A DNA stretch of 64,000 bases, taken from NCBI GenBank assembly GCA_007376485.1, contig VMGJ01000001.1:41788-105787 (forward strand). The letters run 5' to 3'. Of the stretch, positions 14,506-14,707 are shown piece after piece. Source of the DNA: Parcubacteria group bacterium Licking1014_17 (GTDB lineage Bacteria > Patescibacteriota > Minisyncoccia > 2-02-FULL-40-12 > IGHO2-01-FULL-4-A). A program made the position numbers and the translations under genes. Every line of letters begins with the position of its first letter. The stretch's first letter is position 1. Under the pieces are notes generated by a model. It searched no databases. It was not told the DNA's origin and saw nothing but the letters and a program-made list of their open reading frames with translations.

Positions 14506-14543
14506 TTTGGTATTAGTTAAAAATTCGTTGCAAAAACCACAGT

Positions 14544-14673
14544 GCTCTTCGGGACGTAATTTCCCCCCAGCGGGGGAAATTACTCTCATGAAGTCGCTGC
14601 CATTTATCAAGGCGTTCACTACGTTCAACCATTGACAAAACCATGCTGGCAGTGACTTCAAGAGCCCTCAAGA
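14544..14673 (+). repeat. structured intergenic element family B, copy B2 (between groES and groEL)
   Basis: Hairpin 'TAATTTCCCCC-CAGC-GGGGGAAATTA'; stem 'GAAGTCGCTGCCA'/'TGGCAGTGACTTC'; 'TTGACAAAACCATGC' conserved. Confidence 0.8.
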
Positions 14674-14707
14674 CACTATAGTTTTTGCAATTCAAATTTT
14701 CATTACA

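Follow-up and report, generated by a model that had tools for sequence, protein, structure and literature searches.

A structured element in the groES–groEL spacer of a Parcubacteria genome belongs to a multicopy intergenic repeat superfamily

What fills an unusually long gap between the two chaperonin genes of a Parcubacteria group bacterium, and does it serve the chaperonin operon? In the 64,000-nt stretch of contig analysed here (the window), groES and groEL are separated by exactly 202 nt (14506–14707). Loci gathered by means of GroEL, which came mostly from distant phyla and serve as a baseline for spacer length and as a negative control, gave a median spacer of 40.5 nt over 82 groESL loci, with 12 spacers of at least 100 nt and a longest of 194 nt. 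An earlier, sequence-only reading of the window had described such spacers as short in most bacteria, and these loci bear that out.

The groES–groEL spacer and its transcription signals

Folded as RNA, the spacer reached −72.5 kcal/mol compared with −39.2 ± 4.0 kcal/mol for dinucleotide shuffles (z = −8.29; none of 200 shuffles equalled it). A self-closing three-way-junction element, B2, takes up 165 of the 202 nt and leaves 21 + 16 = 37 nt of ordinary spacer (Table 1). A covariance model, R1, built from the five copies of the family (B) to which the sequence-only reading had assigned this element, scored B2 at 135 bits (E = 2e-32) over 14537–14681, so that the description of the spacer as filled by a structured family-B element holds. 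The conserved core ends 31 nt, and the outer closing helix 16 nt, before the groEL ATG.

The sole strong promoter of the locus lies upstream of groES and is followed directly by a CIRCE-like inverted repeat (Table 1). The CIRCE consensus is TTAGCACTC-N9-GAGTGCTAA, and the repeat is a likely HrcA operator; two relatives (loci L017 and L020) carry CIRCE-like repeats at the corresponding position. Between groES and groEL there was no usable promoter on the + strand, the one weak match (14697–14726) overlapping the groEL ATG, and no hairpin with a T-run was found on the + strand within 14506–14707 or after groEL. With neither promoter nor terminator between the two genes, read-through is the likely outcome, and co-transcription of groES and groEL across B2 is the most economical reading of these signals. 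The earlier expectation that B2 does not terminate transcription is, as far as sequence can tell, supported.

The opposite arrangement, in which B2 would end the groES transcript and groEL would be transcribed separately, is exceedingly improbable. It would account for the high stability of a structure that follows a stop codon, and the sister copy B3 occupies the place where relatives carry the canonical intrinsic terminator of groEL; but no T-run follows the B2 helix, the spacer offers no usable promoter, and other copies stand 15–38 nt upstream of the next cistron in obvious operons (holB/frr and HlyD/ABC). Intrinsic termination was likewise rejected as a family property, as the 3′ flanks of the copies have no consistent T-run. 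As a separate observation, the apical hairpin of B3 (CCCCGACTATAAGTCGGGGCT) is almost identical to the L017 terminator stem (CCCCGACGTAAGTCGGGGCT; L017 ~11790–11830, L020 ~11640–11670), which may be coincidence or may reflect a captured terminator.

Table 1. Features of the groESL locus and copies of the repeat superfamily in the window
Feature	Position	Strand	Description
Sigma-70-like promoter, groESL operon	14080–14107	+	TTGACA-16-TAAAAT; 11/12 consensus matches; top site within 13900–17100
CIRCE-like inverted repeat	14105–14131	+	TTGGCACTC-N9-GTGTGCTAG; directly after promoter, upstream of groES
groES	14218–14505	+	95 aa; Pfam match Cpn10
Left remnant, ordinary spacer	14506–14526	+	21 nt
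B2, full extent with copy-specific outer closing helix	14527–14691	+ (orientation of the model)	165 nt
B2 outer closing helix	14527–14537 with 14681–14691	+	GTTGCAAAAAC pairs with GTTTTTGCAAT
B2 P1 core	14541–14553 with 14665–14677	+	AGTG-C-TCTT-C-GGG pairs with CCC-TC-AAGA-CACT
B2 P2 hairpin	14556–14583	+	Invariant loop motif CCNGCG, here CCAGCGG (14567–14573)
B2 long P3/P4 arm	14585–14664	+	Invariant 7-nt bulge ACCATGC (CCRWGC motif; 14640–14646)
Right remnant, ordinary spacer	14692–14707	+	16 nt; A/T-rich; without Shine–Dalgarno sequence
groEL	14708–16336	+	542 aa; Pfam match Cpn60
B3, family copy	16342–16499	+	Starts 6 nt past groEL stop; groEL thus bracketed by B2 and B3
A1, A-type (family A of the first reading)	5339–5469	+	B-type 5′ fragment ahead at ~5311–5330
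B1, B-type	9326–9469	+	After serS
B1r, C-type	9503–9625	−	Sole copy in opposite orientation
A2, A-type	10473–10603	+	
B4, B-type	49709–49864	+	
B6, C-type	51623–51767	+	Inside HlyD/ABC/FtsX operon, 15 nt before ABC gene
B5, B-type	53752–53886	+	After FtsX/MacB gene
A3 mosaic	57499–57717	+	A-type copy 57506–57636, then B-type 3′ fragment, then third 3′ end
A4, A-type	60339–60466	+	
A5, A-type	63164–63284	+	

A superfamily of structured intergenic repeats

A repeat search of the window showed family B to comprise five co-oriented copies and returned a second family, A. Model R1 also detected two diverged copies in the window (B6 and B1r) and three further ones in the 9 kb upstream of it (locus L016, 5720–5853, 6443–6567 and 8420–8543). 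With filters off it found all five family-A copies at full length (13–32 bits), so A and B are subtypes of a single superfamily, to which a third type, C (B6, X2 and B1r), belongs. The three subtypes have a common architecture and the same invariant loop and bulge. At least 15 copies, each about 120–165 nt long, lie in ~66 kb of contig (window-equivalent positions −3154 to 63284); the 12 within the window account for ~2.6% of its length. Every copy is intergenic, and the window has 21 gaps of at least 100 nt, of which 12 are occupied. The sites they occupy include holB/frr (15 nt before frr), the region after frr, rseP-like/aaRS (before the aminoacyl-tRNA synthetase gene), PBP2/greA, the region after serS, the HlyD/ABC exporter genes, FtsX/yggT (after the FtsX subunit gene), the region after groEL and several others. 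The family is known from this one contig of the genome and from one related contig.

RNAalifold gave the five B copies a common fold consisting of the closing helix P1, a P2 hairpin with a 7-nt loop and a P3/P4 arm with a 7-nt bulge, with an extra apical hairpin in some copies. Of the 51 pairs, 27 were altered on both sides. Paired cells on the B consensus amounted to 91%, compared with 78% in column shuffles (0 of 500 reached 91%) and 32–48% in a control in which the partners were slid by 1–3 columns. The P2 loop CCNGCG and the bulge CCRWGC are invariant in all 16 copies (15 on the contig and one in the relative L022, described below), and the inner part of P1 reads CUUUUCG ... CUCAAAG in most of them. 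The heavy covariation together with the invariant unpaired motifs indicates selection on the fold as such. A DNA repeat that is merely selfish would not need this, which argues for a function or for a structured transposition intermediate.

Between two C-type copies (L016 6443–6567 and window 9503–9625) the 33-nt P2 module (CACCATTCGCCCGCCCAGCGAGCGGGCTCATTC) is 100% identical, and their P1 and P3 helices are strongly different. Conservation inside the element is very uneven.

Searches for a known family gave nothing that matched. Rfam 15 returned no hit at gathering thresholds over the whole window, only noise far below gathering scores at E ≤ 10 for B2, B1/B1r and A1, and only tRNAs on L015, L016 and L022. 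No match to B2 was found by blastn against plasmids and phages. An exact signature of the B type had 0 matches in GTDB representative genomes and 13 in JGI metagenomes, all of them coding or chance sequence once inspected; B-type and A-type exact signatures had 0 matches in viral contigs. A literature search found no description of such repeats in Patescibacteria. The superfamily is previously undescribed, and is present in neither Rfam nor any collection searched.

Candidate classes were also considered one by one. A hammerhead ribozyme was rejected, because B3 alone has CUGAUGA (CUGGUGA, CUCAUGA or CUCGUGA stands in the remaining copies) and the helix is not followed by GAAA; for other small self-cleaving ribozymes, there was no Rfam ribozyme match. 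An internal promoter was rejected because no −10 element accompanies the TTGACA of P4, which the A types lack, and a loop–bulge pseudoknot because the two motifs are non-complementary on both strands. A tetraloop-receptor motif in P1 did not fit. For a type I toxin–antitoxin system (Sib/Ibs-like), the sole recurrent frame (xKxLxFVK...) stops after 8–15 codons, at varying points, and recurs because the P3/P4 nucleotides are conserved. Integron attC sites were rejected on the absence of R″/R′ motifs from the alignment and on the housekeeping nature of the neighbouring genes, and REP/BIME elements on the form of the copies, which are 120–165-nt three-way junctions with no conserved terminal tetranucleotide.

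The window holds repeats of other kinds. A 35-nt near-perfect palindrome (GACATTCTCACATTCTTGAGAATGTGAGAATG) is present in two copies (43083–43117 and 43450–43484) that flank a 113-aa ORF (43128–43469), and the 1.25-kb gene-poor stretch containing these palindromes also holds a 53-nt direct repeat (42174–42226 and 43018–43070). A giant 2762-aa ORF at 22939–31227 has internal tandem repeats of ~843–873 nt (families D1–D6 and D12–D14).

Insertion into the spacer and mobile-repeat behaviour

The earlier reading had proposed that groESL spacers be compared in related genomes. The next best GroEL proteins are only 79–82% identical to that of this genome. Six of the seven nearest relatives have spacers of 1–69 nt, and R1, run with filters off, found no family member at their groESL loci (spacers of 28 nt in L017 and L019, 33 nt in L020 and L021, 69 nt in L023, 1 nt in L024, 60 nt in L106 and 3 nt in L107). 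Removal of 14527–14691 leaves 37 nt here, which resemble the 28-nt spacer of L017. The short, element-free spacers of the relatives and this remnant show B2 to be an insertion, and the ancestral spacer would have been ~30–40 nt long.

The remaining relative, L022 (GroEL 82% identical), carries a true family member (62.6 bits, E = 5e-14) between lemA and an M48 peptidase gene, so the family is present in no fewer than two organisms, and the site in L022 is a different one. In L017 lemA and the M48 peptidase gene abut. Presence and absence at orthologous sites, as expected of MITEs, is seen in the groESL spacers of six relatives and at lemA/M48, empty in L017 and occupied in L022. The groES–groEL spacer of L022 itself (6590–6781) is 191 nt long and structured, but its sequence is unrelated, it was missed by R1 and it lacks the family architecture; we treat it as a different element from the family of B2.

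Spacers of at least 100 nt are commoner in Patescibacteria-like loci (7 of 18). Structured groES–groEL spacers of unrelated sequence were seen at L022 6590–6781, L040 9836–10000, L037 1080–1249, L028 828–936 and L044 3272–3465, with z from −4.3 to −6.7 for the Patescibacteria among such loci. In the acidobacterial locus L044 the 194-nt spacer is made up of four REP-like hairpins in tandem. Spacers of groESL that are both long and structured are uncommon yet recurrent, the spacer appears to tolerate repeat insertions, and it seems to be a recurrent landing site for structured repeats. Separately, a 490-nt intergenic region after groEL in L022 (8405–8895; −188.6 kcal/mol) has its own TTGACA-17-TATAAT promoter and a terminator, and no Rfam match at gathering threshold; by these features it may be a large unannotated non-coding RNA.

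Several properties of the copies are those of mobile repeats. Nested and truncated copies were found, and fragments are common: two A-type copies are immediately preceded by a B-type 5′ fragment (TTCGGGACTGAAT; window ~5311–5330 and L016 ~8396–8410), B-type 3′ fragments follow X2 and A3, and the A3 mosaic is closed by a 12-bp inverted repeat (CTGGCGGCAAAC/GTTTGCCGCCAG). Orphan 5′ or 3′ fragments of one subtype beside complete copies of another were also noted, among them L016 6575–6610. As to terminal inverted repeats like those of MITEs, the picture is mixed: the A types share ~12 bp (GAATATGTCTTT/AAAGACATATTC), but the outer helix of the B and C types is complementary with a sequence that is different in each copy. 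Beyond the conserved core, copy-specific short inverted repeats reached at least 7 of 10 Watson–Crick pairs in 9 of 16 copies, compared with 3.7% of cross-copy controls. Such copy-specific complementary flanks would be expected if copies insert into hairpin loops, or if a closed end is selected for. No fixed-length target-site duplication was consistent across copies (ATTC/AATTC is possible at B2), the flanks being inverted repeats instead, and no transposase, RAYT or reverse transcriptase is encoded within the 82 kb examined of the 188-kb contig. The most similar pair of copies is ~91% identical and no two are identical, which leaves current mobility unproven.

Taken together, we consider B2 a probable passenger that the operon tolerates. 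It is a single member of a lineage-specific superfamily of structured intergenic repeats, present in high copy number, that is REP/ERIC/MITE-like but forms a new family. The superfamily would have spread across the intergenic regions of this Parcubacteria lineage by mobility or recombination, possibly by targeting hairpin loops, and one copy would have landed in the short ancestral groES–groEL spacer. RNA polymerase would read through it from the CIRCE-controlled promoter, making B2 part of the groESL mRNA. There the ends of B2 would pair (~25 bp, extending into the flanks) into a closed module that keeps the groES stop and the groEL start near in space, and the insertion may have been tolerated because B2 closes on itself. 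Should B2 affect groESL at all, for example as a target of a double-strand nuclease or as a structure protecting a 3′ or 5′ end, the effect would be one common to the whole family, not chaperonin-specific control.

The modelled mRNA can also be read in favour of a regulatory RNA specific to groESL, such as a thermosensor or an element controlling groEL translation. When 14400–14820 was folded as a single RNA, the B2 fold was identical and pairing ran on into the flanks, so that the groES stop comes to lie close to the groEL start; around that start, the probability of being unpaired averaged 0.46 with B2 compared with 0.69 after its deletion in silico. B2 moreover sits in a heat-shock operon, directly upstream of groEL. 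But the same type of element occurs at no fewer than 14 unrelated sites and is absent from groESL in the six relatives above, B2 closes upstream of the ATG where there is no Shine–Dalgarno sequence to sequester, and no Rfam thermometer or leader was matched. A thermometer or translational operator of groEL was rejected on these grounds, and we regard a groESL-specific regulatory RNA as very improbable.

The sequence-only reading had gone further, and held that placement in this operon implies a role in processing, stability or differential expression of the two cistrons. That step is not borne out. Copies stand at 15 or more intergenic sites beside unrelated housekeeping genes, they are missing from groESL in relatives and they form mosaics as mobile repeats do, so a groESL-specific role is unsupported; the wobble pairs of the B and C types, considered below, also point to the strand absent from the mRNA. 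It is unlikely that B2 has an RNA function dedicated to groESL, and it may have an incidental effect on the mRNA, as a site for RNase III or RNase Y or as a 3′ stabiliser.

Which strand carries the fold

With 15 of 16 copies co-oriented with the flanking genes, it is the + strand of these copies that enters mRNA. For all 15 contig copies, however, the reverse strand gives the more stable fold. A.C mismatches on the + strand correspond to G.U pairs on its complement, and in the B and C types they exceed the G.U pairs of the + strand by 33 to 8, or by 26 to 8 without a recurrent loop-closing pair (p about 0.003–0.02). The A type has no such bias (14 to 20); read on the reverse strand, its 2×2 UC/UC internal loop is a tandem GA/GA. 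Composition accounts for part of the difference in energy, the elements being C-rich on their + strand, and z-scores are similar for both strands. No conserved promoter for a minus-strand RNA was found. As read from these counts, the opposite-strand wobble excess would weaken models in which the fold functions in mRNA.

One such model is that the superfamily is a domesticated, generic cis-acting module of + strand RNA, serving in mRNAs as a processing site (RNase III, Y or J), as a 3′-end stabiliser or non-canonical terminator, or as both; in that case B2 would make the stability of the groES segment independent of that of the groEL segment. The orientation of the copies agrees with this, as does the start of many of them 4–12 nt past a stop codon, and the long near-perfect P3/P4 duplex would resemble substrates of double-strand nucleases. 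Copy X3 has a cUUCGg apical loop on the + strand, the fold appears to be under selection, canonical intrinsic terminators are scarce in the window, promoter-like sites follow several copies, and B3 takes the position of the groEL terminator of relatives. There is precedent, in that bacterial intergenic repeats are often co-transcribed at gene 3′ ends and some affect mRNA stability (PMC3184786). The wobble counts of the B and C types, however, run opposite to the expectation for selection on + strand RNA, the elements lack a following U-tract, close relatives do without them at the same sites, and the nested fragments resemble insertion debris rather than designed modules. We judge a domesticated mRNA module to be unlikely.

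In 1–20000 and 44001–64000 of the window, hairpin-plus-T-run terminators were barely above shuffle expectation, with almost none in + strand intergenic regions and one clear canonical case at 47370–47387. The promoter-like sites after copies are at 16511–16539, 49934–49962, 57723–57751 and 63334–63362.

The same strand comparison raises the converse, that the active form is the minus strand of the window, either as single-stranded DNA for a recombinase or HUH-type enzyme (compare the attC bottom strand and REP/IS200-type hairpins) or in the form of an antisense RNA. On this view, selection by the host, or the geometry of replication, would exclude the active strand from mRNAs and so produce the orientation bias. 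The greater reverse-strand stability of every contig copy, the wobble excess and the tandem GA/GA would all be expected; flanks that vary yet are complementary in every copy suggest hairpin loops as the sites of insertion, and the invariant loop and bulge resemble motifs that a protein would recognise. The compositional share of the energy difference and the like z-scores, the unbiased A type and the lack of a conserved minus-strand promoter count against it, as does the absence of any recombinase or HUH gene within the 82 kb examined. The attC R boxes and the REP GTAG/CGTC tags are also missing, and the positive GC skew of the + strand would make the minus strand the leading-strand template, which is not the most exposed single-stranded DNA. 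A minus-strand active form is, on this balance, distinctly unlikely.

A broader proposal is that the repeats are a new class of nucleic-acid element, active on the opposite strand, with the loop and bulge as protein recognition sites and with insertion into hairpin loops (of terminators and of other copies). They would then represent a new single-strand-dependent mobility or recombination system of the Candidate Phyla Radiation (CPR) or, alternatively, RNA punctuation that replaces canonical terminators. We hold this to be quite unlikely.

Known repeat systems and what the superfamily means for compact genomes

Genomes of the Candidate Phyla Radiation are tiny and compact, yet these repeats take up ~2.6% of the window and some of them lie inside essential operons (groESL, holB–frr and an ABC exporter). 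If they are tolerated passengers, as we favour, a self-closing fold is what lets a repeat enter such operons, and a regulatory reading of any single copy calls for caution. If the fold were functional on the mRNA strand, it would be a general device for transcript punctuation in a lineage seemingly poor in canonical terminators; if on the opposite strand, a new single-strand-active mobile or recombination site. Model R1 provides a concrete means of surveying Patescibacteria for the family.

Intercistronic RNase III hairpins, as in the early region of phage T7, resemble B2 in being stable duplexes with an internal loop between co-transcribed cistrons; they are non-terminating and leave protective hairpins after cleavage. 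The T7-type signals are single-copy and locus-specific, however, and cleavage at the present repeats is purely hypothetical.

Integron attC sites are similar in that structure is conserved while stem sequence varies, in their position just downstream of co-oriented ORFs, in having a folded functional strand opposite to the ORF sense strand and in apical structures that are variable and sometimes branched. The present repeats differ in having no R″/R′ boxes (RYYYAAC/GTTRRRY) and no integrase nearby, and in standing beside core housekeeping genes in conserved operons, not beside cassettes.

REP/BIME elements with their RAYT proteins, and REPINs, are likewise high-copy extragenic palindromes with several subtypes per genome and mosaic clusters; they are often transcribed at operon 3′ ends, where REPs stabilise upstream mRNA, and REP-like hairpins also occupy one groES–groEL spacer (L044). 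REPs are 20–40-nt GC-rich hairpins with a GTAG or CGTC tag and alternating orientation, whereas the elements here are four times longer, branched, untagged and almost all in one orientation, with no RAYT gene within the 82 kb examined.

ERIC (IRU) and Correia/NEMIS elements, the small MITE-like repeats of Enterobacteria and Neisseria, are also ~100–160 nt long, multicopy and intergenic, with long-range complementarity and a position often just 3′ of genes; they are co-transcribed with flanking genes, vary in presence between relatives and can alter mRNA processing or stability (PMC3184786). Their fold is a simple, imperfect hairpin, their terminal inverted repeats are conserved, and they are accompanied by duplications of TA or the like. 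The superfamily, by contrast, forms a three-way junction with invariant unpaired motifs, a copy-specific outer helix and no consistent duplication, and its three subtypes have a common architecture with little stem sequence in common. It is a family that works like ERIC, Correia and REP elements yet fails the defining features of each.
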